In this document: positions 2-22,919 of the stretch, piece by piece | Numbering within the stretch: position 1 is the first letter of the stretch | Layout of the letters: every line of letters begins with the position of its first letter | Virus record (IMG/VR): IMGVR_UViG_2778261256_000006 | Coordinates: 1-55,611 of that record | Reading direction: 5' to 3' (one strand) | DNA length: 55,611 nucleotides | Source: a virus | Taxonomy: Duplodnaviria; Heunggongvirae; Uroviricota; Caudoviricetes | The notes under the pieces: generated by a model | The model's input: the letters and a program-made list of their open reading frames with translations, nothing else | What the model was told of the DNA's origin: nothing | Databases searched by the model: none | Made by a program: the position numbers and the translations under genes

Positions 2-910
2 TTACAAACATCGATTGTAGGGATTCGTGAAGGAAAAAACATCAGTTATGAGGAGTTGCAATATTCACTTCTTCCTATTCCGGCTGAAGAAGAACAAACC
101 CGTATCGCCAACTTCCTCGACAAGAAAACCGCTCTAATCGACGAAGCGATTTCGATCAAAGAGCAGCAAATTAGCCTGCTGAAAGAGCGTAAGCAGATCA
201 TCATCCAACAGGCGGTGACCCAAGGGCTTGATCCCAATGTGCCAATGAAAGACTCCGGTGTGGATTGGATTGGAGATATTCCAGAGCATTGGGAAGTTGT
301 GCCTCTAAAAAGGTTGGCGGTCTTGAGCCCTTCTGTGAAAGTTTCAAATAGAAAGTCCAAAGAATTAGTTACTTTCTTAGCGATGGAAAAGGTTTCAACA
401 GATGGATTTATTGATCAAGATACATTAATGCCTATATGTGATGTGAGCCAAGGTTTTACGGTTTTTAACCGGGGGGATGTGATTGTTGCAAAAATTACAC
501 CTTGCTTTGAAAATGGGAAATCTGCTTGGCTTAACAATCTTCAAACTGAGTTTGGATACGGCTCAACCGAGTTTCACGTTTTAAGATGTGGTCAGAGAAT
601 TATAGGAAGTTTTCTCTACTTAATCGTTAGTTCGCCCCTTTTTCTTAATGCCGGTGAGGCTATGATGACTGGTTCAGCTGGTCAGAAGCGCGTGCCTAGT
701 TCATTTATCCAAAACTTTCCTACCGCAATTCCCGGAGTTGCAGAGCAAGAAAAAATAGTATCAAAGGTAAAAGAGCTGTTTTCACAGATTGATGTTGTTG
801 TGGCTTCTACGGTAAATCAAATCGAAAAGCTCAAAGAATACAAAACCACCCTGATCAACAGCGCCGTGACAGGAAAAATAAAAATCACCCCGGAAATGGT
901 TGAGCAATAG
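2..910 (+). CDS. hsdS: Type I restriction-modification specificity subunit HsdS, 3' portion (5' end outside window)
   Basis: Frame is open from the window edge; HsdS-like central conserved region (LPIPAEEEQTRIANFLDKKTALID) followed by a target-recognition domain and C-terminal conserved helix; lies upstream of hsdR. Confidence 0.75.
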   Translation, partial: LQTSIVGIREGKNISYEELQYSLLPIPAEEEQTRIANFLDKKTALIDEAISIKEQQISLLKERKQIIIQQAVTQGLDPNVPMKDSGVDWIGDIPEHWEVVPLKRLAVLSPSVKVSNRKSKELVTFLAMEKVSTDGFIDQDTLMPICDVSQGFTVFNRGDVIVAKITPCFENGKSAWLNNLQTEFGYGSTEFHVLRCGQRIIGSFLYLIVSSPLFLNAGEAMMTGSAGQKRVPSSFIQNFPTAIPGVAEQEKIVSKVKELFSQIDVVVASTVNQIEKLKEYKTTLINSAVTGKIKITPEMVEQ

Positions 911-919
911 GACGCGAAT

Positions 920-2083
920 ATGTTCACGGTAAATCATCAGGCCAATAGGATTAGTCCGGTTAAGACTAAGAGATTCAGTGAGTTGGGCTTTACTGAGCGC
1001 AAAAATCTTCAGGAATGGTTGGCACACGAGCCTTCCGCACTGGGTGAAGAGCTGCTGATTATTCAAAAAGAGTTCGATGGCTTTGATGACACCCGTGAAC
1101 GCTTAGATTTACTGGCACTGGATAAAGATGGCAACTTGGTCATTATTGAAAACAAGCTGGACGACAGTGGCCGCGATGTGGTGTGGCAGGCGCTTAAATA
1201 TGCCTCTTACTGTGCCAGTTTAACCAAAGCGCAAATCGTTGAAATTTACCAGCAGTACTTAGACCGCTATGAGCATGTAACAGGAGAGGTTGACTTGTTT
1301 AATACCCCTGCAAGTGCCTCTGCTAGAATATGTGAGTTTTTGGATGCGCCCGATCTCGATGAGTTAAAGCTCAACCTGGGTAACAGCCAGCGCATTATGT
1401 TAGTTGCGGCAAACTTTCGCAAAGAAGTGACCTGCACCGCGCTGTGGTTATTGGGTCAAGGCATTAGCATTGCCTGCTTCAAAATCACGCCTTATTCACT
1501 GGGTGAACAGCTACTGATTAATATTGACCAGATCATTCCAACGCCAGAAGCGAAAGAGTTGATGATCGGCATTAATGCCAAGGAAGCGGAAGAAAAAACC
1601 ACCGAAGTGGTACTAAAAAACCGCCATACCGTGCGTCGCAAGTACTGGGAGCGTGCCTTAGAGGCGTTTCAGAAAAGCGCTTGCCAACTCTATAACAACA
1701 TTAGCCCAAGCAAAGATCATTGGTTATCAGCAGGCTCAGGGCTAAGTGGATGTCCGTATAACCTGATATTTCTGCAAAAAGAGCTTCGAGTAGAGCTTTG
1801 GATCAGCCGTGGGGTTACCGAAGAGAATAAATACCTTTTTGATTTGTTGAGTCAGTCCAAACAAGACATTGAGCATACTTTTGGTGCAGAACTTGAGTGG
1901 ATGAGGCTGGATGAGAAGAAATCTTGCCGTATCCAGTTTTCGACCAAAGCTGACGGGTTTAACAAAGAGACTTGGCCCCAAGCGGTTGCGTGGCACTTAG
2001 AGCAGATGACAAAGTTAGAAAAAGCCTTGAAAGGACCGCTGCAAAAAGCGGCTGAAGCAATGAAACAGAAGAATTTTGATTAA
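920..2083 (+). CDS. PD-(D/E)xK nuclease-fold protein (DUF4268-like), embedded between hsdS and hsdR
   Basis: 387-aa ORF with D-x(n)-ENK motif (DKDGNLVIIENK); 10-15 bp gaps to flanking hsd genes suggest one operon. Confidence 0.5.
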   Translation: MFTVNHQANRISPVKTKRFSELGFTERKNLQEWLAHEPSALGEELLIIQKEFDGFDDTRERLDLLALDKDGNLVIIENKLDDSGRDVVWQALKYASYCASLTKAQIVEIYQQYLDRYEHVTGEVDLFNTPASASARICEFLDAPDLDELKLNLGNSQRIMLVAANFRKEVTCTALWLLGQGISIACFKITPYSLGEQLLINIDQIIPTPEAKELMIGINAKEAEEKTTEVVLKNRHTVRRKYWERALEAFQKSACQLYNNISPSKDHWLSAGSGLSGCPYNLIFLQKELRVELWISRGVTEENKYLFDLLSQSKQDIEHTFGAELEWMRLDEKKSCRIQFSTKADGFNKETWPQAVAWHLEQMTKLEKALKGPLQKAAEAMKQKNFD

Positions 2084-2097
2084 GGGAATTTACAATT

Positions 2098-5816
<3,719 letters not shown>

Positions 5817-7644: not shown

Positions 7645-8700
7645 CTATTTGCGAGCCTTTGCCTTGCGCAGCTCTTCGAGAATCGCCAGTTCTTCCTTGC
7701 TCAACATGACCATTTCCCCGTCTTTTTCTTCAGGGGCAACATCGATAATGTCCTCCGGATCATCACCTGGCAAGATATCTTCTGGCTCTTCAGGCGTGGC
7801 CATAGATGGCGGCAGTGCCGAACGTAACTTCGGCCGTCTATAGTGGATGACGAAGTAGACCGAGCTGCCGCGTTTCACTTCAGTGTAATCGAGATAGCCG
7901 ATCTCTCGCAGCTGCTCCATCGCCTTCCTGACTGTCGCATTCTGGGTAATGGTGCGGCTGGTTAAGTTAAGTCTGGCGCGTAAGCGAGCCAATGAGATTG
8001 GCGCCGGGTCTGGTGGCAAACTTTCAATGAAGGTGTAGAGCGCCTGCGCGGATTCTTTTCTGGAGAGTTCGTTGATGGCCCGAAGTTGCAAAAGCACCTT
8101 TTTGTCGAACTGGTAAAGTTCGAAAATCTTAGGATCGGCCTTCAGTTCGACCGTGTCATTCTTGGTACTGTACTTTGCCGTCTGCACAAGGTGCGTAACG
8201 TAATACTCTTCAGAGCCTTTGCTGCGGAATGAGATGGTGTTTGTGGCGATACGACTTAGAGAGCTGTCCAGGCGCTTACGTAACTTCGCGGACGATCTGG
8301 CTGTTGGTATGCCACAAAGTCTGACGAACTCGACGAACGGCAACGTGACGGTGTCACCAACAACCTTGTGCTTGGCGAACGCGTGGATGATGCCCACCCA
8401 TGTTTTGAAATCGTTATCCATATCAAGACGAAGACCAGCAATCCTTATATCCTCGTACCCTTCGGCTTTGGCCAGAGACAGCTGTTTGAGTTCAGCGGAG
8501 GCGTCCATAGAGACCATTTGCCCCTTTCTACCCCTGGATGTCGATTTCAGCGTCGGAACGAAGAGACCAAGACGCATCAGAGCAACAGGCTGAACTGTGT
8601 TGTTGGTGTTAGGAACTAACGTAACAACTTCGCCGGTCTTTTTGTCTGTTTCGGAAAATGCTTCGCTTATCGCAATGTTTTTATTGTCGTTTACGCTCAT
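7645..8700 (-). CDS. repA: Replication initiator RepA (RepFIB / P1 RepA family, iteron-binding)
   Basis: 351 aa; motifs I recall from RepFIB RepA ([61 protein letters not shown]); flanked by iterons. Confidence 0.88.
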
Positions 8701-10462: not shown

Positions 10463-11548
10463 ATGACATTGCCATACGGGGTAATATCAGATCCCCATTA
10501 TCATCGTTGGGATGCTTTTGCGACAACAAACGCTGACGGGCTTAACTCTCGGCTGGAGATCCAACTGGACGCTACGAAGGAGGCGGCCAAAGCGATGAAA
10601 GCTGCTGGCTGTAAGCACATGCTGGTAGCTGGTGATACCTTCCATGTTCGCGGTGCTATATCACCTTCCGTTCTGCATTTCGTGACCGAAACTTACGAGT
10701 GGATCATCAAAGAGTTGGGTCTCAAGGTGGTAATGCTGGCTGGCAACCACGACCTCGAAACCAACGATTCCGTATACAGCGCCAATGCAGCAGCCTCTCT
10801 GCGCTCAATCGGTGTGGAAATCGTCTGCGGCAAACGTCCTCATTCCATCAAAATGGGCGACGTAACCGTCCATCTGATTAGCTGGCGTAATAACCACGCA
10901 GAACTTATCAGCGATCTCAAAACGCTGCGTTCCGGGCTGGATGGTGACAACCATGATGTTGTTGTACATACCTCAATCAACAAAGCGATCCCCACCATGC
11001 CCGATGTCGGCATCGACGCACAGGAACTGAAAGATATCGGCTTCCGTTTATTGTTGTCCGGGCACTACCACAACCACAAAGAAGTGCTGCCTGGAGTGGT
11101 AAGTATCGGGGCGCTGACACACCAGAATTGGGGGGATGTTGGTTCACTGGCCGGCTTCATGATCGTCAAACCGGACGGCTCATTCACTCACCACGAAACC
11201 TCGGCACCTAAATTCGTGAACCTTGAGGACGATGTAGATGACGATCAGATTCGCGGCAACTACGTGCGCTTCCGTGCCGTTGTTGAGAGCGATGAAGAAG
11301 GCATCAAACTTCAGAACGTCCTGAAAACAATGGGCGCGAAGGGTGTCGTCTGCAACTTCATTCGCAAGGCATCGATGATGGAAGGCGCTGCCAGTACTGC
11401 GGAAACCAGCAAAATTGACAGCCTGGGAGAGTCCGTTGCGGCGTACTGCAAGATCGTTCACGACACTGACGGTGGCTTCGACCTGAGCAAACTGGACATA
11501 CTGTGTCAGGAGATCTTGACCGAAGCAGAGAGTGCGGAGGCTGTGTGA
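10463..11548 (+). CDS. SbcD/Mre11-family metallophosphoesterase nuclease (phage recombination nuclease)
   Basis: Calcineurin-like phosphoesterase motifs (DPHY, GDTFH, GNHD, GHYH); upstream of an SbcC/Rad50-like ATPase. Confidence 0.85.
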   Translation: MTLPYGVISDPHYHRWDAFATTNADGLNSRLEIQLDATKEAAKAMKAAGCKHMLVAGDTFHVRGAISPSVLHFVTETYEWIIKELGLKVVMLAGNHDLETNDSVYSANAAASLRSIGVEIVCGKRPHSIKMGDVTVHLISWRNNHAELISDLKTLRSGLDGDNHDVVVHTSINKAIPTMPDVGIDAQELKDIGFRLLLSGHYHNHKEVLPGVVSIGALTHQNWGDVGSLAGFMIVKPDGSFTHHETSAPKFVNLEDDVDDDQIRGNYVRFRAVVESDEEGIKLQNVLKTMGAKGVVCNFIRKASMMEGAASTAETSKIDSLGESVAAYCKIVHDTDGGFDLSKLDILCQEILTEAESAEAV

Positions 11549-11589
11549 GGCAACGTTATTATGGGAGCTTTCGAGATTTTGCCATCGTG

Positions 11590-11781
11590 ATGAAAAAACT
11601 TCAAAAAGGCCAGACGGTTATGTTTCACAAGCCATACCCTTCAGGAGGAAATCCCGTAGCGTTTTATCTTGGAAGGCTAACCAGAAAAGGCTTATTGAAT
11701 CGCAGATCCTTCCCCGCGCATACGGAGTTCAGATTGAAAGATGGTCAAAAGTTAACACACGATATCAGAGGTGTTATATGA
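11590..11781 (+). CDS. small protein between the sbcD-like and sbcC-like genes
   Basis: 63-aa ORF; its stop overlaps the ATG of the SbcC-like gene (ATATGA), suggesting translational coupling. Confidence 0.35.
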   Translation: MKKLQKGQTVMFHKPYPSGGNPVAFYLGRLTRKGLLNRRSFPAHTEFRLKDGQKLTHDIRGVI

Positions 11782-13694
11782 AGTTTTTAAAGCTCCAGGT
11801 TGAAAATTTTATGGCAATCGCCAGCGCAGAAGTCGAGTTAGACCAGCGTGGACTGGTGCTGATCCAGGGTGTGAACAGTGGCGATACGTCTGCTGCCAGC
11901 AATGGCGCCGGGAAATCCACTCTGATGAATAGCTTAATGTGGTGTCTGTATGGTGAGACTGCACATGGCGTCAAAGGCGATGACGTGCTGTCGACGGGCC
12001 ATGAGAAGAACTGCCGTGTGATGGTTACAGTTGAAGACGAAGGTAAGAAATACGCGATCATTCGCCATCGTAAACACAAAGAGTTCAAGAACCGACTAAT
12101 CGTCCGTGGTGAAGACGGTGATATGACCAAAGGCAAGGACACGCTGACACAGACGTTCGTAGAACGTCTGATTGGGGCATCGAAAGAGGTGTTCATGGCG
12201 TCCATCTACGCCAGTCAGGAAGCGATGCCAGATCTGCCCGGTATGTCCGACAAGAGCCTCAAAACCATCGTTGAAGAAGCTGCTGGCGTCGACCGATTGA
12301 CGCGAGCCTATGCCATTGCCCGCGAGCGTGCTAATGCAGCTGCCGCACGTATGGACGTTACCAAATCCAAAATGGACGCCTGTCTCACGCTTATCGAGAC
12401 TGCACAGTCAGAGATTGAGGCGGCCAAAGCGTCCTCTGAAAGCTGGGAGCGCGATCGCGGCGAGCGTCTGGACAAGGCCCGAGCCGATTTGGCTGGCGCG
12501 GAGGTAACACTGTCTGAAGTCGAGATGGAAATTCGCTCGCTGCCGGAACAGATCCGTGATACGGAAAACGCGATTGCTGGCGAACGCAGCAAGCTGGCCT
12601 CCAAAGAAGAGCATGACGCCAAACTGCTGAAGGTGCGCAGTGCTATTACTGAGATCCGCTCAAGCATCCGTACTTCAGAAGCGGCACAGAACGAGTCGAT
12701 AAACCGTGCTCGCTCGTTTAAAACCAAAGCTGAAGAGGTCAGCACAAAGATCGGGGCACCCTGCATTACGTGCGGAAAGCCCTACTGCGAAGAAGATTTA
12801 TCCACGGTGAAGGAGAGCTTCATTGAACAAGCGCGCAATGAGATCGGCCTTGCGCAGACATCAGCAGCGGCAGTGGCTCAACACAAGGCTCGTCTTGAGA
12901 AAGCGCTCGGTATCGAGTCTGCACTGGTCGCAGCCACACCCGACGTCTCAGAAATCATCTCCACAATAGAACGCCTGACCAATGAGCTAAGTGCGCTGCG
13001 TCATCGCGAACGTGAAGTTGTGGCCGTCGAAGCGATGGTTGCGCGGGCGCGTACTGAAGTGAATCGCATCATGGCGGAAGCAAACCCATTTCTGGCCGTT
13101 ATTAAGCGCCATGAAGACAACCTGGCTGCCAATAAATCTAATCATGCAGTACTTAAAAATGAGTTAAAGAGCATTCAGGAACAGGCTCTGTTGCTGGAGA
13201 AGGCCCGCCAGGTTTACTCCCCAGCAGGCGTGCGTTCACACATCCTGACCTCCGTTACGCCTTTCCTGAACATCAGGACTGCGGAGTATCTCAACACGCT
13301 GTCGGACGGCAATATCGTTGCCGAATGGTCGACAATGGAGACAACGAAGAAAGGTGAGTATCGCGACAAATTCAATATCAGCGTAATCAAAACAGGCTCC
13401 AGCAAATCCTTCCAGACTTTGTCTGGTGGTGAGAAGCGTAAGGTACGTATTGCGTGCTCTCTGGCTTTGCAGGATCTGGTTGCCAGTCGCGCCAGTAAGA
13501 ATATCGAGCTATTTATCGGTGATGAAATTGACGACGCGCTCGACACAGCCGGTCTGGAGCGTCTCATGGGGATTCTGGAAGCCAAAGCGCGTGAACGTGG
13601 CACAGTGATGATCATCTCCCACAAAGAGATGAAATCGTGGTTCCGGGAAATTATCACTGTCGAAGTTAAAGAGGGGCGCAGCTATGTCGTTTAA
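11778..13694 (+). CDS. SbcC/Rad50-family ATPase (recombination nuclease ATPase subunit)
   Basis: Walker A (NGAGKST), long coiled-coil, CxxC zinc hook (CITCGKPYC), signature (LSGGEKRKV), Walker B (GDEIDDALD). Confidence 0.85.
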   Translation: MKFLKLQVENFMAIASAEVELDQRGLVLIQGVNSGDTSAASNGAGKSTLMNSLMWCLYGETAHGVKGDDVLSTGHEKNCRVMVTVEDEGKKYAIIRHRKHKEFKNRLIVRGEDGDMTKGKDTLTQTFVERLIGASKEVFMASIYASQEAMPDLPGMSDKSLKTIVEEAAGVDRLTRAYAIARERANAAAARMDVTKSKMDACLTLIETAQSEIEAAKASSESWERDRGERLDKARADLAGAEVTLSEVEMEIRSLPEQIRDTENAIAGERSKLASKEEHDAKLLKVRSAITEIRSSIRTSEAAQNESINRARSFKTKAEEVSTKIGAPCITCGKPYCEEDLSTVKESFIEQARNEIGLAQTSAAAVAQHKARLEKALGIESALVAATPDVSEIISTIERLTNELSALRHREREVVAVEAMVARARTEVNRIMAEANPFLAVIKRHEDNLAANKSNHAVLKNELKSIQEQALLLEKARQVYSPAGVRSHILTSVTPFLNIRTAEYLNTLSDGNIVAEWSTMETTKKGEYRDKFNISVIKTGSSKSFQTLSGGEKRKVRIACSLALQDLVASRASKNIELFIGDEIDDALDTAGLERLMGILEAKARERGTVMIISHKEMKSWFREIITVEVKEGRSYVV

Positions 13695-15812: not shown

Positions 15813-16273
15813 ATTGGGCTACACATAATAAGCATCGTAAAACGTAACGCCCACCGAGCCGCTGCCAGCTGCATGAAGCGCTGACAAAGTTCGCTGTCGA
15901 TTGCACTGGCCCGAGCCAGTTCGAATACCTCTAAGCCGAGTTTAACCACTTTGTGGCCTGGCGCTGCTGGGTCAAAATTGGCGTATCAAAAGAAGTCTAA
16001 AGGAAAGAAAACATGAAATTTACGAAACTGACCGATCATCTGAAACTTGCCGCAGACAAACTCGTGGGGTTTAAACCAGAGCCTTACGAGTTGAATCCCG
16101 GTTTTCCGCACGCCTTGCGGAACTGGAAGAACGAGTGTTTGAACTGGAGAAGCGCATTAATGCGCAAGCTACCGCCATAGCTAATCTGGGCACGACAGTA
16201 GGCATGGAGAAGGTGCGTAATAGCGTTGCTTCTCGTGTTTTGCGTGAAACCCGGATACACAAGGACAGTTCTC

Positions 16274-16822: not shown

Positions 16823-17638
16823 ATGTTTGAGGTAACTGCACACGCTCCCAGCACCACAGGCTTACATGCCAGGCCATCGATGACCAGTCAGGAGATCGCC
16901 GAAATGGTCGGCAGTCGCCATGACAGCGTAAAACGCACCATTGAAAGACTCGCTAAATCCGGCGTTATTACTTTTCCACCAATGGTGGAAAAGCCCACTG
17001 CCGGGCGTCCGGCTACGTTTTACTTGTTCGAAGCCGAACAGGGTAAGCGCGACAGTATCGTTGTCGTGGCACAGCTTTCTCCTGAATTTACCGCACGCCT
17101 TGTTGATCGGTGGAGAGAGCTTGAGTCCATGTTTGCCGACCGCGGAACGCCTGCTATTCCACGTACCTATAAAGAGGCTCTGGTTCATTTGTTACACCAG
17201 GTCGAGGAAAACGAGCGTCTGGAGAAAGAGAACGAAGCGTTAGGCGTTGCACTATCTAACGCAAAACCAAAAGCCATTCTCATGGACACCATTTGCGGCA
17301 CTGCTGATGAGCTTTATGGGCTGAATGAAGCTGGTCGCATTCTCGGCACGTCCGGGGCTGTTCTGGGTTCGCTGATGGACTCGCTGGGTGATGTGTACGT
17401 TAAGCGCAAATACACCACTGTTAACCGCCAGTTCCTCAAGATCTTCATTGACCGCGGATATGGCAAAAACGTTGTCATCGGAAACGGTCGCAACCAGGCC
17501 AAGTTCACCTTTAAAGGGCTTTGCTTTGCAGCTGTGAAACTAATTGCAGCCGGGTTGATTGCCTCCAGCGCCATTGAATATGAGCCGTGTCGTGAGCATG
17601 TCGAACGTGCAATGAAGGAATCCAAACGTCTTCATTGA
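16823..17638 (+). CDS. Rha-family phage regulatory protein / antirepressor-like
   Basis: N-terminal Rha-like segment (SMTSQEIAEMVGSRHDSVKRTIERL), C-terminal antirepressor-like region; true start may be ATG 16880. Confidence 0.65.
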   Translation: MFEVTAHAPSTTGLHARPSMTSQEIAEMVGSRHDSVKRTIERLAKSGVITFPPMVEKPTAGRPATFYLFEAEQGKRDSIVVVAQLSPEFTARLVDRWRELESMFADRGTPAIPRTYKEALVHLLHQVEENERLEKENEALGVALSNAKPKAILMDTICGTADELYGLNEAGRILGTSGAVLGSLMDSLGDVYVKRKYTTVNRQFLKIFIDRGYGKNVVIGNGRNQAKFTFKGLCFAAVKLIAAGLIASSAIEYEPCREHVERAMKESKRLH

Positions 17639-17747
17639 CCGTCAGTATGGACGTCCACCTTTATGTAGCGTTTGGCCACCTTTTCAGTCACGTCACAATA
17701 ACACAATTGAGAAAACAACTTGTTTAAAAACATAAGAAAAAAAACAC

Positions 17748-18320
17748 ATGTGCGAAAAATGCAAAAAAACTAATGCCAAAGTTGAAAGCGTGATTAAAAA
17801 AGTTGGTGCGGCCGAACTGGTTGAGATCATGGGTCTTGTGGTTGGTCACGAAGACGACGCCTCCCCTATTGACCGCCTTTTCAGCGTTCTCAAGTTCTCA
17901 AGCATGATTGATGATCCGATTGAAATTGTGATGCTGGCGCGTCATTTCGGCGAAGCGTATCTGGAAGAGAAAGAACGCGCCGACAAACTTCAGGCAACTC
18001 TGGAAATGGTAAGCAAGCCGAAGTGCTCACCGGATTCAGTCAAGGCAGATGAAACCAACGCCAGCAAAGATCGTGAAATCGCCGGGTTGAAGTCTTCTCT
18101 GGCGATGTTGCTGGCCGCCTTCAAACTGATGTCTTCCCAGGCTGGATTCAAAATGCCTGAGCTGAACAGCGACGATCCGATGGCCGTTCGCCAGCTGCTG
18201 GGGGCAATGGCCGACCAGCTTGACGACACCAAGAGCCGTCTTGAAGACATGATGCGCGAGCTGACCCATCGCCACGACCTGAACAAACAGCCGCAAAAGA
18301 TGCAGCCTTTACATCATTAA
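17748..18320 (+). CDS. hypothetical protein
   Basis: 190-aa ORF preceded by the operator-like motif; no recognised domain. Confidence 0.5.
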   Translation: MCEKCKKTNAKVESVIKKVGAAELVEIMGLVVGHEDDASPIDRLFSVLKFSSMIDDPIEIVMLARHFGEAYLEEKERADKLQATLEMVSKPKCSPDSVKADETNASKDREIAGLKSSLAMLLAAFKLMSSQAGFKMPELNSDDPMAVRQLLGAMADQLDDTKSRLEDMMRELTHRHDLNKQPQKMQPLHH

Positions 18321-18324
18321 TATA

Positions 18325-18345
18325 TAGGGGGCAAAGCCCCCTACT
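18325..18345. terminator. bidirectional hairpin between convergent genes
   Basis: AGGGGGC-AAA-GCCCCCT between the 17748-18320 (+) and 18346-18765 (-) genes. Confidence 0.5.
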
Positions 18346-18765
18346 CTACTTTGCGGCGTCTAACAATAAGCCGCAATTTTCGCTCATGTATGCCGCAGTT
18401 GCCGGATTGCCTCTGTCATTATTCGAATTGTTCATTTCAGGGTGAGCGTCCCAGGCCACTGATTCCTGAGATGATAGATAGACGGCAAAGTCGACGATTT
18501 CATCATCTCCGGTTTTAACGTTGCCAAGCAATTCATTTGCCTTTCTCCAGTGCTTCAGCGCGAGAATTCTGAACTGTTTTGCATTTTCAGCAGGCACTGC
18601 ACTGGATTTGTCTGTGTAGATATTCGATATGTCGGCATAAAGAGCGCATTTAACATAGCTGGTTGCCCTGCCGGTCTCTTTAAAACCTTGCTCTGTGTTG
18701 TTGGCGTAGACATTCACAGCAAAAGCGCTGGCAATTCCCAGCAATATAATTTTCTTCATCATCAT
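18346..18765 (-). CDS. secreted hypothetical protein (signal peptide)
   Basis: MMMKKIILLGIASAFAVNVYA signal peptide; 139 aa. Confidence 0.55.
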   Translation of the reverse strand: MMMKKIILLGIASAFAVNVYANNTEQGFKETGRATSYVKCALYADISNIYTDKSSAVPAENAKQFRILALKHWRKANELLGNVKTGDDEIVDFAVYLSSQESVAWDAHPEMNNSNNDRGNPATAAYMSENCGLLLDAAK

Positions 18766-18936
18766 TACTCAATAAGGAGGCGACAAATATCTTACGTGTA
18801 GTTGTCAGTTGAGTATTAAGTAAACTCAATAAACTTATAAGTATCTCCCTGTGCAGCCTGTGAATCCTTATTTATTACCTACTCAATTTTGAAATAATAA
18901 CACCAACAAAAAAACAATTTGTTTAATGGTGCAATC

Positions 18937-20622
18937 ATGAATACAGCCCTTTCCATCATTGACGCTATCACTCCAAACACTGATATCGACTACCGGCAGG
19001 AAATGAACGTTATCCACGAAATTGTGGCCGAGTGCGAGAAAGAGATCGCATTCATGCATCAGGTTCACGACTTCGTTTATGGCGACGAACGCCACAGCAT
19101 GATTAACCGTCTGCTGCGACTCAACCACCGGCCGGATGACGAGCGCACACGCTTTAACAGAGCCTGGTTGGACAAAGTCGACCTGGAATGGGTGAAACAG
19201 AACATCTGGGCTGAATACTGGAAGAAGGTCACGGATATGACCAACGTTCTGCTGATCATGCCAGCATCCCGCCGCGACGAGTGGCGTGAACAGTTTATCG
19301 AGGGCAAGCAGGAAACGATCAAGACTGACAGAACTGGCTATCAAATGAAGGTTAAAGAGTTCGTTGGTGTACCTGAGTTCAAAGCAGAAACGGTCATACC
19401 AACGATGCTTAATTTGCTGAATGACAGGCACAAATATCTCTCTGAGCGCGTGTATGGCTTGTTTAAGGCGTTGAGTCCTGCTCACAAGACCAATAAGACG
19501 AACGGCTTCAGCGAGCGTCTGATCATCGCCGACTGCATTTCCGATTTCTGGCGGGACAGCGTCAGCGTTAACTACCGGAAAGAGGATTACATAGACGACC
19601 TGCGCGTCATGTTGCATTTCTTTGCACACAAAGAATTTATCACCATCAACCGCACGGCCGAGATGCTGTCAGCTGCGTATCGAGCAAATGACTGCCAGAC
19701 CGGCGACTGGATGAATGTCGACGGAAACCTGATGCGTGTGAAGATGTTTAAGAACGGCAACGTTCACTTTGAAATACATCCTGACGTAGCCTGGAAGCTG
19801 AATGAGGTGCTGGCTTACAGTATGCCTGCAGCAATCCCGGCGCCATGCCGTACTGCACCCAAAACACGGGCACCAAAAGAGTTCGGGTTAATCCAGAAGA
19901 CGATCTCCGAGCCGGTTCGTACCGCGCTGCGCGACGGGCGATTCAGCAAAGATAAAGGCGTCTGGTACTTCTCTGATTCCAACCTCCAGAAGTCGCAGGT
20001 GGAAGAGCTTGAGCGCACACTGAACTTCATTGGCGGCGTGCAGGAGAAAAAGCACTGGCAGTTCCCGTATGAGATCGGCCATACGCTCAATACGATTGTG
20101 GCCACCGGCTTAATACCGGATACAAAATCACACCAGTTCTACCCTACCCCGCGTTTGATAGCGGAGTACGTTGCCAGAGCCATCGAGCTGAAGCAAGGTG
20201 AGAAGCTGCTGGAGCCTGAAGCCGGGCGCGGAGATCTGCTGGCCTGCATCGACGCCAATCCGGAAGACGTTACCTGCATAGAAGTCGCACCTCTCTTCGC
20301 TGATATCCTGCTTGGCAAGGGGTACACAAATACGGTCTGCTGCGACTTCATGAAGTGGTCTGAGGACAACGCAGGTTATCAGTTCGACAAAATCGTTATG
20401 AACCCGCCCTACTCTCTTGGCCGTCACAGAGAGCATACGCTGGCCGCGCTGGAGCATCTTAAAGTCGGCGGGCGACTGGTGGCTGTATTGCCTGGTGATG
20501 CGCCAGTTCTGAACTGGATGTCGCTGGATAATTACGTTTATGCCAAAGGGAAGTCGTTTACTGACGAGTTTGAAGACACCGGGATTACTGTCAGCGTATA
20601 CGTTTTTAAACGCGTTAAATGA
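18937..20622 (+). CDS. DNA N6-adenine methyltransferase (orphan) with large N-terminal domain of unknown function
   Basis: C-terminal SAM-binding motif I (LEPEAGRGDLL) and catalytic NPPY (VMNPPYS); about 380-aa N-terminal extension; no cognate endonuclease adjacent. Confidence 0.75.
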   Translation: MNTALSIIDAITPNTDIDYRQEMNVIHEIVAECEKEIAFMHQVHDFVYGDERHSMINRLLRLNHRPDDERTRFNRAWLDKVDLEWVKQNIWAEYWKKVTDMTNVLLIMPASRRDEWREQFIEGKQETIKTDRTGYQMKVKEFVGVPEFKAETVIPTMLNLLNDRHKYLSERVYGLFKALSPAHKTNKTNGFSERLIIADCISDFWRDSVSVNYRKEDYIDDLRVMLHFFAHKEFITINRTAEMLSAAYRANDCQTGDWMNVDGNLMRVKMFKNGNVHFEIHPDVAWKLNEVLAYSMPAAIPAPCRTAPKTRAPKEFGLIQKTISEPVRTALRDGRFSKDKGVWYFSDSNLQKSQVEELERTLNFIGGVQEKKHWQFPYEIGHTLNTIVATGLIPDTKSHQFYPTPRLIAEYVARAIELKQGEKLLEPEAGRGDLLACIDANPEDVTCIEVAPLFADILLGKGYTNTVCCDFMKWSEDNAGYQFDKIVMNPPYSLGRHREHTLAALEHLKVGGRLVAVLPGDAPVLNWMSLDNYVYAKGKSFTDEFEDTGITVSVYVFKRVK

Positions 20623-20684
20623 TAGGTAAATACTTACCTAATCTAGGTAAGAATATAGTGACTATATGATAAGAGAAAAAACAC

Positions 20685-21374
20685 ATGAGCAATCTTCCGT
20701 TAGAGCGTTTTAACGTCAAAAGCCATGCCGACTTTCCTTTCAAATTTGTAATGAGAGGTTATGCAGAGGAAGCAGTAGGCCAGATCATCATTGACAAAGG
20801 CATTGTTAAGTTTGAAGGGGATTATGATGAATCCGCGAAAACATTCATAGACTTCGTTGCTAAACGTTGGAGCGAGCAATGGAGAGACCTGGAAAAACGT
20901 GCTCGTGAATTTGATACATTCATGTCTGCAATTGATACAGCAAAAACGGCTCTGGCTGCGGGTACTCCGTTAGATTTGGAGTCTCTGTTTAAAGGTGAAA
21001 TGGCCTCTGCGATGTTCGCAACCATGTTTGCCGGTGAGTTTGTTCGTAGCGGGGCCAGAAACTACCTGGAGCTGGGGTACGACGTTCCTGAAATGGGTGA
21101 GTTTACCGTCACCATTCAACGCAAAGAAGGTAAGGCTCCTGGCGAACGTATCGCTGAACTTGAGGCCGTTGTGGATCAGCGTAATGGAGAATGTGATCGT
21201 TTGGTCAACGAACTTGATGCTCTCCGGGAAGAGAAAATATGCACGGGTAGCAACACACGCAATGCAGCGGATATCTACTTCCAGTTAGTTGAGGAATGCC
21301 AGATCCCGCCAGGCGGCTCTTTGGTTGAGTATGTTCGCGAATTGCAGGAGAAAGGAGAGAGGTGCGCGGCATGA
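20685..21374 (+). CDS. hypothetical protein
   Basis: 229-aa ORF; coiled-coil-like C-terminal region. Confidence 0.5.
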   Translation: MSNLPLERFNVKSHADFPFKFVMRGYAEEAVGQIIIDKGIVKFEGDYDESAKTFIDFVAKRWSEQWRDLEKRAREFDTFMSAIDTAKTALAAGTPLDLESLFKGEMASAMFATMFAGEFVRSGARNYLELGYDVPEMGEFTVTIQRKEGKAPGERIAELEAVVDQRNGECDRLVNELDALREEKICTGSNTRNAADIYFQLVEECQIPPGGSLVEYVRELQEKGERCAA

Positions 21375-21652
21375 ATGACCTGCTTGTCGAGCGAGCCTCC
21401 GCTTTTGTTAAGTCCTCGCTGGACAATCCCCTCACCCGCGGTGAGCAGATGGAGCTGGCAAGGTGGTTTCTGCATATCCATGAGCAGATGGAAGTTTTTA
21501 AACAGTTGCCGGATCTGCCCATTACAGACGGCCATGTTCAGCAAGTGATTAACAGCCACGAAAAAGGCTGGGCGATGATTGTGCCGTGCAAAATTACCTA
21601 CGAGCTGGCTAAGGAAGTGCAGGCTAACAGAGCAAGGAGTAAGGAAGAGTAA
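21371..21652 (+). CDS. hypothetical protein
   Basis: 94-aa ORF overlapping the upstream stop. Confidence 0.45.
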   Translation: MNDLLVERASAFVKSSLDNPLTRGEQMELARWFLHIHEQMEVFKQLPDLPITDGHVQQVINSHEKGWAMIVPCKITYELAKEVQANRARSKEE

Positions 21653-21654
21653 CT

Positions 21655-22371
21655 ATGAAGTTGGGTAATGCCGTTTCGCTGTTTTTTACAGCATTACTGG
21701 AAGGTTTCAATTATCGCTTTTGTCCGGTCTGGGATAAGGCGCTGGATACGCTTATTGAGGTGCGAAATGGGATCGCGCTGTTTGAGCGCGACGCCCAGCT
21801 ATATGAAGTGTTCGTCGGGGCTGGCTTCAACCACTTCGGGCATCTTATTAGCTTGAATAGTGGAACCGTAGAGATGCAGATCGCGGCGCTTCTGCATGAT
21901 GTGGTTGAAGACACCCATGTCACCATAGAGATGGTTCGTGAGCACTTCGGTGAGCGCGTAGCCGAAATGGTTCTGGCTCTGACCAACATTGCCAGACCAG
22001 AAGACGGCAATCGAATACAGCGTTTCATCATCAACGTCCGGGAGCTGCAGCAAAGCCTCGACATGCAGACGCGCATGATCAAGCTGGCTGACCTGCTGGA
22101 CAATACCTCTTCTATTGTGAGTCGCGACCCTGAGTTTTCAGCCATCTATCTCGCAGAGAAAGAGCTGATGCTGGCCGTACTCTTTGACGGCAAGGAGATT
22201 GGTGCCGATGCCGGCGTTGTCGAGTACCTGGAGAAAAAAGGTATAGAGCATTCGTTGCTGATAAACGCCCGGGCGATGGTGACGAAAGGCATTGCCAGTC
22301 TGCAACCGGTACACACCAAACGTTATGAAAAACACAAAGCGCTGATCTGGAACGCGTGGGAGGCTGCATGA
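21655..22371 (+). CDS. HD-domain (p)ppGpp hydrolase-like protein (small alarmone hydrolase, SpoT/Mesh1-type HD domain)
   Basis: HD motifs HFGHLISL, AALLHDVVEDT, FGERVAEMVLALT, IKLADLLDN match the RelA/SpoT hydrolase-domain signature; no synthetase domain. Confidence 0.7.
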   Translation: MKLGNAVSLFFTALLEGFNYRFCPVWDKALDTLIEVRNGIALFERDAQLYEVFVGAGFNHFGHLISLNSGTVEMQIAALLHDVVEDTHVTIEMVREHFGERVAEMVLALTNIARPEDGNRIQRFIINVRELQQSLDMQTRMIKLADLLDNTSSIVSRDPEFSAIYLAEKELMLAVLFDGKEIGADAGVVEYLEKKGIEHSLLINARAMVTKGIASLQPVHTKRYEKHKALIWNAWEAA

Positions 22372-22919
22372 AGGTCGAGAAATTAGATGTTCTTTCCTTT
22401 GTGCTGACGGATCTGGAACGTCTCGACCCGGTACGCGTAATGATTGAAAACTACGAGCCGGGCAAGGGAAGAGTCACCATCACCTGCTATGGGAAAGCGT
22501 GGACTGCTGCCTGGTTCGCGATGGGCGGTGACGATGTGCAGACGTTTATTAAGCGAATGAGCAACGATTATTTGATTGGTTGCCTCGACCCTCAACTGCG
22601 AAGCACGGTCGACGATGACAACGACGCAAATCTGCTTTTCGTGAAATCCGAAATCATAAAGTTACGCAGGGAGAGAGAAATCGACGCGGAACAGGCCCGC
22701 AATATGTGGGACGAGGCAGAAAACGCTGATGACGTAAAAGAAAGTTGCTGCTGTTTCGGTGTCGGTAACGAACTGCTGAGTCTGTTTGGTGACGATCCGT
22801 GGTATGCCGGTTGGCCAACGGTGCCAAACCCCAAATACCAATACCTGGAGCGTATCTTGAACGCGGTACGTGATGGGCTGAAAGAGCTTCACGATCAGGC
22901 GAGAGAAGCAATCGGTTAA
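22368..22919 (+). CDS. hypothetical protein
   Basis: 184-aa ORF overlapping the upstream stop; acidic. Confidence 0.45.
   Translation: MKVEKLDVLSFVLTDLERLDPVRVMIENYEPGKGRVTITCYGKAWTAAWFAMGGDDVQTFIKRMSNDYLIGCLDPQLRSTVDDDNDANLLFVKSEIIKLRREREIDAEQARNMWDEAENADDVKESCCCFGVGNELLSLFGDDPWYAGWPTVPNPKYQYLERILNAVRDGLKELHDQAREAIG

Follow-up and report, generated by a model that had tools for sequence, protein, structure and literature searches.

Orphan methyltransferases are a prominent class of genes in the plasmid anti-defence islands bounded by umuDC (Samuel et al., PMC11541004), and two orphan plasmid enzymes, M.EcoGIX and M.BceJIII, have been reported to be single-strand specific, to recognise a relaxed target (SAY) and to protect incoming DNA from restriction (PMC7736820). 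Methyltransferase domains are also found in polyvalent proteins, where Iyer et al. have classed them, with DarB as the archetype, as EcoKI/TaqI-like DNA adenine methyltransferases, and an anti-restriction role has been proposed for the DarB-type members (PMC5512222). In Pseudomonas aeruginosa, mad2 is needed in vivo for N6-methyladenine at TCAGNNNNTCC, and the predicted specificity subunit of the corresponding MADS system is encoded separately (bioRxiv 10.1101/2023.03.30.534895). Here we compare with these systems a gene carried by a 55,611-nucleotide stretch of viral DNA (IMG/VR record IMGVR_UViG_2778261256_000006), the whole of which is termed here the window. The gene encodes a domain of unknown function, DUF4942, fused to a minimal methyltransferase domain. 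The reading that we favour, with a probability of roughly 0.6, is that its product acts as a solitary DNA N6-adenine methyltransferase, modifying the DNA of the phage-plasmid that carries it and thereby shielding this DNA from restriction.

A DUF4942-methyltransferase fusion gene

The preliminary description of this locus, made from the nucleotide sequence, had reported a gene in which LEPEAGRGDLL is followed by NPPY and had classed its product as an N6-adenine methyltransferase; both statements are borne out by the present analysis, and the open reading frame (ORF) proves to be intact. The ORF listing gives the frame as 18919..20622 (+), from an upstream TTG that makes the product six residues longer than the ATG form. 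The ATG at 18937 yields a protein of 561 aa beginning MNTAL, a start that is shared by most homologues in the alignment (MxTAL), and the 567-aa TTG form is used in some database entries. The protein is of the same length as gp095 of Salmonella phage SSU5, annotated as 'DNA methyltransferase', with which it shares 98.4% amino acid identity, and proteins 90-99% identical are encoded by SSU5-like phage-plasmids of E. coli, Klebsiella, Enterobacter, Citrobacter and Salmonella hosts; hence, the gene is not new as a sequence. The window is an SSU5/pHCM2-type phage-plasmid, and the gene is a catalogued, almost exact copy of an annotated phage-plasmid gene that falls among the orphan methylases already known from mobile elements. 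The SSU5 gp095/pHCM2 protein is labelled by NCBI either 'DUF4942 domain-containing protein' or 'class I SAM-dependent methyltransferase' (SAM, S-adenosylmethionine), and YdiA is the name of one truncated S. Typhi copy (pHCM2 'YdiA'). The PHROG family 6263 ('DNA methyltransferase') aligns with the protein over its whole length (E 5.8e-299); this match, the alignment with a stand-alone methyltransferase and the conservation of both motifs given below exceed chance by far.

The C-terminal domain has a Rossmann-like class I methyltransferase fold, with motifs in the order I then IV and no target-recognition domain (TRD) between them, and the full-length AlphaFold model reaches a pLDDT (predicted local distance difference test) of 83.5 overall and of about 90 in this domain. 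Motif I and NPP[YF] are each present in 69 of the 70 full-length divergent relatives, throughout which NPP[YF] lies some 70 aa from the C-terminus; the domain must therefore be regarded as a minimal catalytic module without a C-terminal TRD. It is acidic (family median pI 5.2) and carries HQFYPTP just upstream of motif I; helix-cap motifs of this kind are typical of EcoKI/TaqI-like adenine methyltransferases. When the family profile was compared with PDB sequences, the best solved relatives were M.TaqI (E 6e-4) and the EcoR124 M subunit, and the best PADLOC match to the domain was the MADS methylase mad2 (E 1.3e-14), followed by Type II methyltransferase models. PHROG families of giant phage proteins, of 1.4 to 3.9 thousand residues, match aa ~397-520 with E-values from 1e-6 to 1e-19, and tblastn yields 33.6% identity to the DarB-like protein of Serratia phage Parlo. 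The domain also aligns with a stand-alone 187-aa plasmid methyltransferase over aa 403-557 (hhalign, E 9.4e-24, probability 99.6). Scores against curated profiles fall below their thresholds (Pfam N6_Mtase, 16 bits against a cutoff of 20.4; MTS, 13.3 against 23). Taken together, these comparisons lead us to infer methyltransferase activity, probably with DNA as the substrate.

The N-terminal region, in which no recognised motif had been noted and for which a domain search had been suggested, proves to be composite, consisting of a variable helical head, a DUF4942 core and a 90-aa module. Pfam DUF4942 (PF13708), still a domain of unknown function, matches aa 140-295 well above threshold (74.7 bits against a cutoff of 25, E 1e-20), and hhalign with a stand-alone 282-aa DUF4942 protein extends the similarity to aa 90-303 (probability 99.0). 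The earlier observation was confirmed and its interpretation is partly supported, and the view of a featureless N-terminal region has had to be corrected. Within the family, the invariant residues of the core are W95, H183-x-T185-N186, D221-L222-R223, D262-G263, G274, H277, H281-P282 and N289. Three of these (H183, R223 and H281) are substituted in the stand-alone protein, which argues against a metal or catalytic centre. The core is mildly basic and the linker that follows is basic (family median pI 8.8 and 8.6, respectively), and from aa 328 onward the protein aligns together with the methyltransferase domain in a further PHROG family, phrog_9133 (profile length 1259). Comparison of the N-terminal part of the family profile with PDB sequences returned only insignificant matches (ZorA, E 0.18; UvrB, E 1.5), and neither profile nor structure comparisons matched the region, in fold or in sequence, to a known inhibitor or enzyme. 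An N-terminal nuclease was considered on account of the 'RE endonuclease' labels that GenBank gives to the full-length homologues of Pseudomonas phage Dolphis (gp121, locus L004) and Aeromonas phage ST4 (homologue H85), and was rejected; these labels look like annotation errors, since the family shows no sign of a nuclease domain, motif or fold.

Table 1. Coordinates, in the window, of the fusion gene, of its domains and motifs, and of the Type I cargo block
Feature	Residues	Coordinates	Strand	Basis or remark
Complete coding sequence, DUF4942-methyltransferase fusion, SSU5 gp095 homologue	561 aa plus stop	18937..20622	+	ORF list, homology
Poorly conserved acidic helical head; first ~17 aa disordered in the model	aa 1-87	18937..19197	+	Alignment, model, pI
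DUF4942 core	aa 88-305	19198..19851	+	Pfam, alignment, hhalign
Small alpha/beta module with invariant GG (aa 366-367), abutting the catalytic domain	aa 306-395	19852..20121	+	Alignment, model, PHROG
Minimal class I SAM-dependent gamma-type N6-adenine methyltransferase domain (predicted)	aa 396-561	20122..20619	+	~70 aa after NPPY, no C-terminal TRD
HQFYPTP, conserved helix-cap motif before motif I	aa 399-405	20131..20151	+	Alignment; weak Pfam N6_Mtase match at aa 400-439
Motif I, LEPEAGRGDLL, predicted SAM-binding loop	aa 425-435	20209..20241	+	Alignment
Motif IV, NPPY, predicted catalytic loop	aa 489-492	20401..20412	+	Alignment; N489, P490 and P491 invariant
HsdS-like ORF, possibly cut by the window start		56-910		
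DUF4268 protein		920-2083		
HsdR	1005 aa	2098-5115		
IS3-family integrase-core fragment		5130-5816		

Genomic context and distribution of the family

No nuclease is encoded next to the gene: none was found when its flanks (16823-22919) were scanned with Pfam and PADLOC, PADLOC models were matched by none of the seven neighbouring proteins, and no mad genes lie around the methylase. The flanks contain a Rha/Ant-type regulator, hypothetical genes, a 139-aa ORF with a signal peptide on the other strand and an HD_4 hydrolase. ORFs were also called up to 6 kb on each side of the gene at 77 divergent loci, encoding relatives at 31-47% identity, and were then clustered. This census revealed no recurrent partner gene, as no real neighbour family occurs in more than seven of the 77 loci, and the lack of an endonuclease partner noted in the preliminary description holds both for the window and for the relatives. 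By their sequences, the families that do recur appear to comprise a CI/LexA-type repressor, an integrase, a YqaJ exonuclease, DUF932 and an SNase-like protein, all of them ordinary genes of prophages and integrative and conjugative elements (ICEs).

Among relatives, the neighbours that can be named suggest islands of anti-restriction genes. On an ICE-like element the gene is adjoined by Antirestrict (ArdB/KlcA), an ArdC-N/MPTase polyvalent protein and a C5-methylase; on the IncHI2 plasmid R478 it is adjoined by Dam, and on an IncHI2-like contig (L007) by Dam and umuDC. The phage relatives are located in 'nin'-type or early regions, and an Alt-like ADP-ribosyltransferase is found near the gene in phages. 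The earlier suggestion of an orphan, protective methylase is hence supported by genomic context, and 'orphan, probably anti-restriction' is the description that this context supports.

HMMER searches with aa 1-395 retrieved 615 clusters (at 50% identity) with E<=1e-3, 152 of them with E<=1e-30. Among the matches listed, most are 500-590 aa long, with the alignment stopping where the methylase is expected to start, and no alternative fused domain was found in ten scanned relatives of atypical length (nine shorter than usual); the two-domain layout is thus a fixed feature of these clusters. The family is carried by phages, IncHI2 plasmids and ICEs: relatives at 30-37% identity are encoded by IncHI2 plasmids such as R478, by Pseudomonas, Aeromonas and other phages, and in 257 GTDB species-representative genomes, mostly of Gamma- and Betaproteobacteria, with some Alphaproteobacteria. 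DUF4942 also exists without the methylase. The gene for the stand-alone 282-aa protein lies close to ArdA, only a few genes away, in an IncI-like plasmid, and further stand-alone copies are known from the Shigella resistance locus (SRL) island, in a gene block that also holds KlcA/YfjX, RadC and CbtA homologues (PMC6980539), and from Salmonella pathogenicity island 3 (SPI-3) (PMC10893270).

Collinearity of the window with SSU5 begins at position 16103 and continues onwards, so that the methylase lies in a syntenic early/accessory region. The two differ in content upstream of 16103, and the window has the additional 139-aa ORF just upstream of the methylase. This ORF (18346-18765, minus strand), which has a clear signal peptide (MMMKKIILLGIASAFAVNVYA...), separates the homologues of SSU5_094 and SSU5_095. 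It is missing from SSU5 and is matched by neither Pfam nor PADLOC; in E. coli relatives, a hypothetical minus-strand ORF occupies a similar place (locus L011, 6404-6847). Three ORFs downstream of the methylase, the HD_4 gene (21655-22371, plus strand) encodes a hydrolase of the RelA/SpoT HD type, which could be a small alarmone hydrolase and, as such, would fit an anti-defence or host-takeover cluster. Upstream of 16103, in a part not collinear with the SSU5 segment used for comparison, the window encodes a Rep3-type replication initiator (7645-8700, minus strand) and an SbcCD-like pair composed of a metallophosphoesterase and an AAA_23/SMC ATPase (10463-13694, plus strand), and that SSU5 segment holds genes for thymidylate synthase, dihydrofolate reductase, RNase H and a second small methylase (gp088).

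A 248-aa antisense ORF (18883-19629, minus strand) inside the methylase gene is a shadow ORF. Equivalent antisense ORFs are present within the gene at 69 of the 77 divergent loci (relatives L015-L091), and the three commonest 'neighbour' clusters of the census were in fact such shadows of the methylase gene itself. They are frame artefacts that could mislead ORF-based analyses of neighbourhoods.

The start of the window is occupied by a Type I restriction-modification cargo block that is absent from SSU5 and whose hsdM would lie upstream of the window. Its hsdR gene was considered as a partner of the methylase and rejected, because it lies 14 kb away, in a separate cargo block flanked by an insertion sequence (IS), and is absent from SSU5 and from most relatives. 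In the E. coli ET220 plasmid (locus L011, 7052-9468), a second, frameshifted copy of the 5' part of the methylase gene, a pseudogene, adjoins a truncated hsdR and an IS3 element, an arrangement that points to IS-mediated rearrangement.

The favoured reading and its rivals

Protection of the element is the best-supported reading because relatives of the gene sit in anti-restriction neighbourhoods. In the mechanism that we propose, the C-terminal 166 aa would act as a stripped-down EcoKI/TaqI-like catalytic domain, which would bind SAM through motif I and methylate a flipped adenine through NPPY. It would do so without a recognition domain of its own, and the basic DUF4942 core, together with the adjoining 90-aa module, would supply nucleic-acid binding or targeting. 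The fixed two-domain layout and the basic pI of these parts speak for such a binding role. The DNA of the element would be methylated, and that of the host incidentally, and host restriction would then encounter modified DNA after infection or transfer. As the N-terminal domain is highly conserved across the family, rather than variable, a single short or relaxed specificity is probably common to its members, instead of many different ones. Several points weigh against this proposal. The existence of methylase-free copies of DUF4942, on the IncI-like plasmid and in the SRL and SPI-3 islands, means that the domain may act by itself and have an activity of its own rather than a role in recognition; conversely, since stand-alone 187-aa homologues of the catalytic domain exist, the methylase may not need DUF4942. 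Furthermore, a search of the literature on DUF4942, on the SSU5/pHCM2 methylase and on methylomes found no functional or experimental methylation study.

A tentative extension of this proposal, possible and by no means probable, is that DUF4942 is a structurally new nucleic-acid-targeting module that renders a TRD-less adenine methylase broad- or structure-specific, for instance towards entering or replicating DNA. The fusion would then constitute an unrecognised anti-restriction strategy of phages, phage-plasmids, IncHI2 plasmids and ICEs across the Proteobacteria, and the stand-alone DUF4942 proteins of plasmid leading regions and pathogenicity islands would be related anti-defence factors.

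The stand-alone proteins can also be accounted for by a bifunctional, 'mini-polyvalent' anti-defence protein, in which DUF4942 acts independently, for example by inhibiting or binding host defence or repair proteins or by binding incoming DNA, and the methylase is separable. The alignment with the IncI-like DUF4942 protein ends exactly at the boundary of the core, the plasmid copy lies near ArdA and the SRL copy in a block with KlcA/YfjX, RadC and CbtA homologues, SPI-3 holds another solitary copy, the catalytic domain is found by itself in IncF leading regions, the core is rich in polar residues that are invariant within the family, and proteins that join independent anti-defence domains are known (PMC5512222). 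Against this, both domains are fused in essentially all close members of the family, the substitutions at H183, R223 and H281 speak against a catalytic site and the region resembles no known inhibitor or enzyme, so that we consider the bifunctional protein rather unlikely. Slightly less credit is due to a regulatory (epigenetic) enzyme that, like Dam or CcrM, would control replication, the lysis-lysogeny decision or host genes through the methylation of sites. A solitary gene is also a hallmark of regulatory methyltransferases, this one is conserved within the SSU5 group, and in the window as well as in Aeromonas phage 56 it is preceded by a Rha/Ant-type regulator; yet the neighbourhoods differ completely among phages, plasmids and ICEs, with no evident conserved regulatory target or partner, and co-location with anti-restriction genes fits protection better.

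The substrate itself might be sought in RNA, with the enzyme modifying an adenine of rRNA or tRNA in the host translation machinery, as the top structural matches include METTL5, PH1948, KsgA/Dim1 and Erm, there are weak NCBIfam and PDB sequence matches to KsgA-type enzymes, and the catalytic domain is as small as that of METTL5, which depends on a partner. The best sequence matches, however, are DNA enzymes (M.TaqI, HsdM, mad2 and the Type II profiles), the NCBIfam KsgA score (13 bits) falls short of its cutoff (171), the clade takes in DarB-like DNA methylase domains and the neighbours are concerned with anti-restriction, not with translation; an RNA enzyme is accordingly improbable. The least credible alternative, and one to which we give almost no weight, is that the protein serves as the modification component of a restriction or defence system and that the nuclease is encoded elsewhere on the element, for example by the Type I hsdR. 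The hsdS-like, DUF4268 and hsdR genes of the window, the truncated hsdR adjoining the methylase fragment in the ET220 plasmid and the 'RE endonuclease' labels could be cited in its favour, but the Type I block is a distant cargo beside an IS3 fragment that SSU5 and most relatives lack, the ET220 arrangement is a rearrangement with pseudogenes, no neighbour family exceeded seven of the 77 loci in the census and the N-terminal region has neither nuclease fold nor motif.

Among clinical Enterobacteriaceae, phage-plasmids of the SSU5 type are common, and they bear resistance genes. If the protective reading is correct, a methylase with which they could cross restriction barriers would help to account for a host range that takes in E. 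coli, Salmonella, Klebsiella, Enterobacter and Citrobacter. Because the same two-domain protein is encoded on IncHI2 resistance plasmids and ICEs, one member would be informative for many: establishing its function would annotate hundreds of protein clusters and provide DUF4942, a domain also present in such well-known pathogenicity islands as SRL and SPI-3, with a first function. Moreover, a relaxed specificity, if true, could make the enzyme a useful methylation tool.

Comparison with known systems

The gamma-class enzymes M.TaqI, HsdM, M.BseCI and CamA have a C-terminal TRD or use an S subunit, whereas the protein described here has only some 70 aa after NPPY, with no adjacent S-subunit gene, and its catalytic domain is preceded by a 395-aa N-terminal region. 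As for the adjacent, co-inherited nuclease of a restriction-modification system, the window flanks encode no nuclease domain, and none of the neighbour families recurs at more than seven of the 77 divergent loci. Mad2, in turn, is the methylase of an eight-gene MADS operon with a predicted specificity subunit, and the similarity to it is confined to the catalytic domain. DarB-type methylase domains, of which phage P1 DarB is the archetype, belong to the same methyltransferase clade (PHROG E 1e-15 to 1e-19), but the proteins that contain them are thousands of residues long and include an SF2 helicase and LPD36, whereas the window protein has no Pfam helicase or LPD match and, unlike the DarB-type polyvalent virion proteins, presents no evidence of virion packaging.

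Another parallel is provided by the 187-aa IncF methylase (pSE11-2, WP_012564978.1), an orphan enzyme of a mobile element that is homologous across the entire catalytic domain, lacks DUF4942 and is encoded among ssb, parB, psiB, psiA and anti-restriction genes. In the pSE11-2 leading region (locus L003, 5505-7477), a 453-aa DUF3560 gene immediately precedes this methylase. DUF3560 was considered as a split-off equivalent of DUF4942 and rejected as unrelated (hhalign probability 0.1), but a methylase without a TRD might use it as a partner in a comparable way. Kinship with M.EcoGIX was also rejected, M.EcoGIX, like M.BceJIII, being a beta-family enzyme with DPPY and no DUF4942, in contrast to the NPPY and the I-then-IV motif order of the window protein. 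Nevertheless, M.EcoGIX and M.BceJIII, although not relatives, would seem to offer the best functional analogy for the fusion described here.

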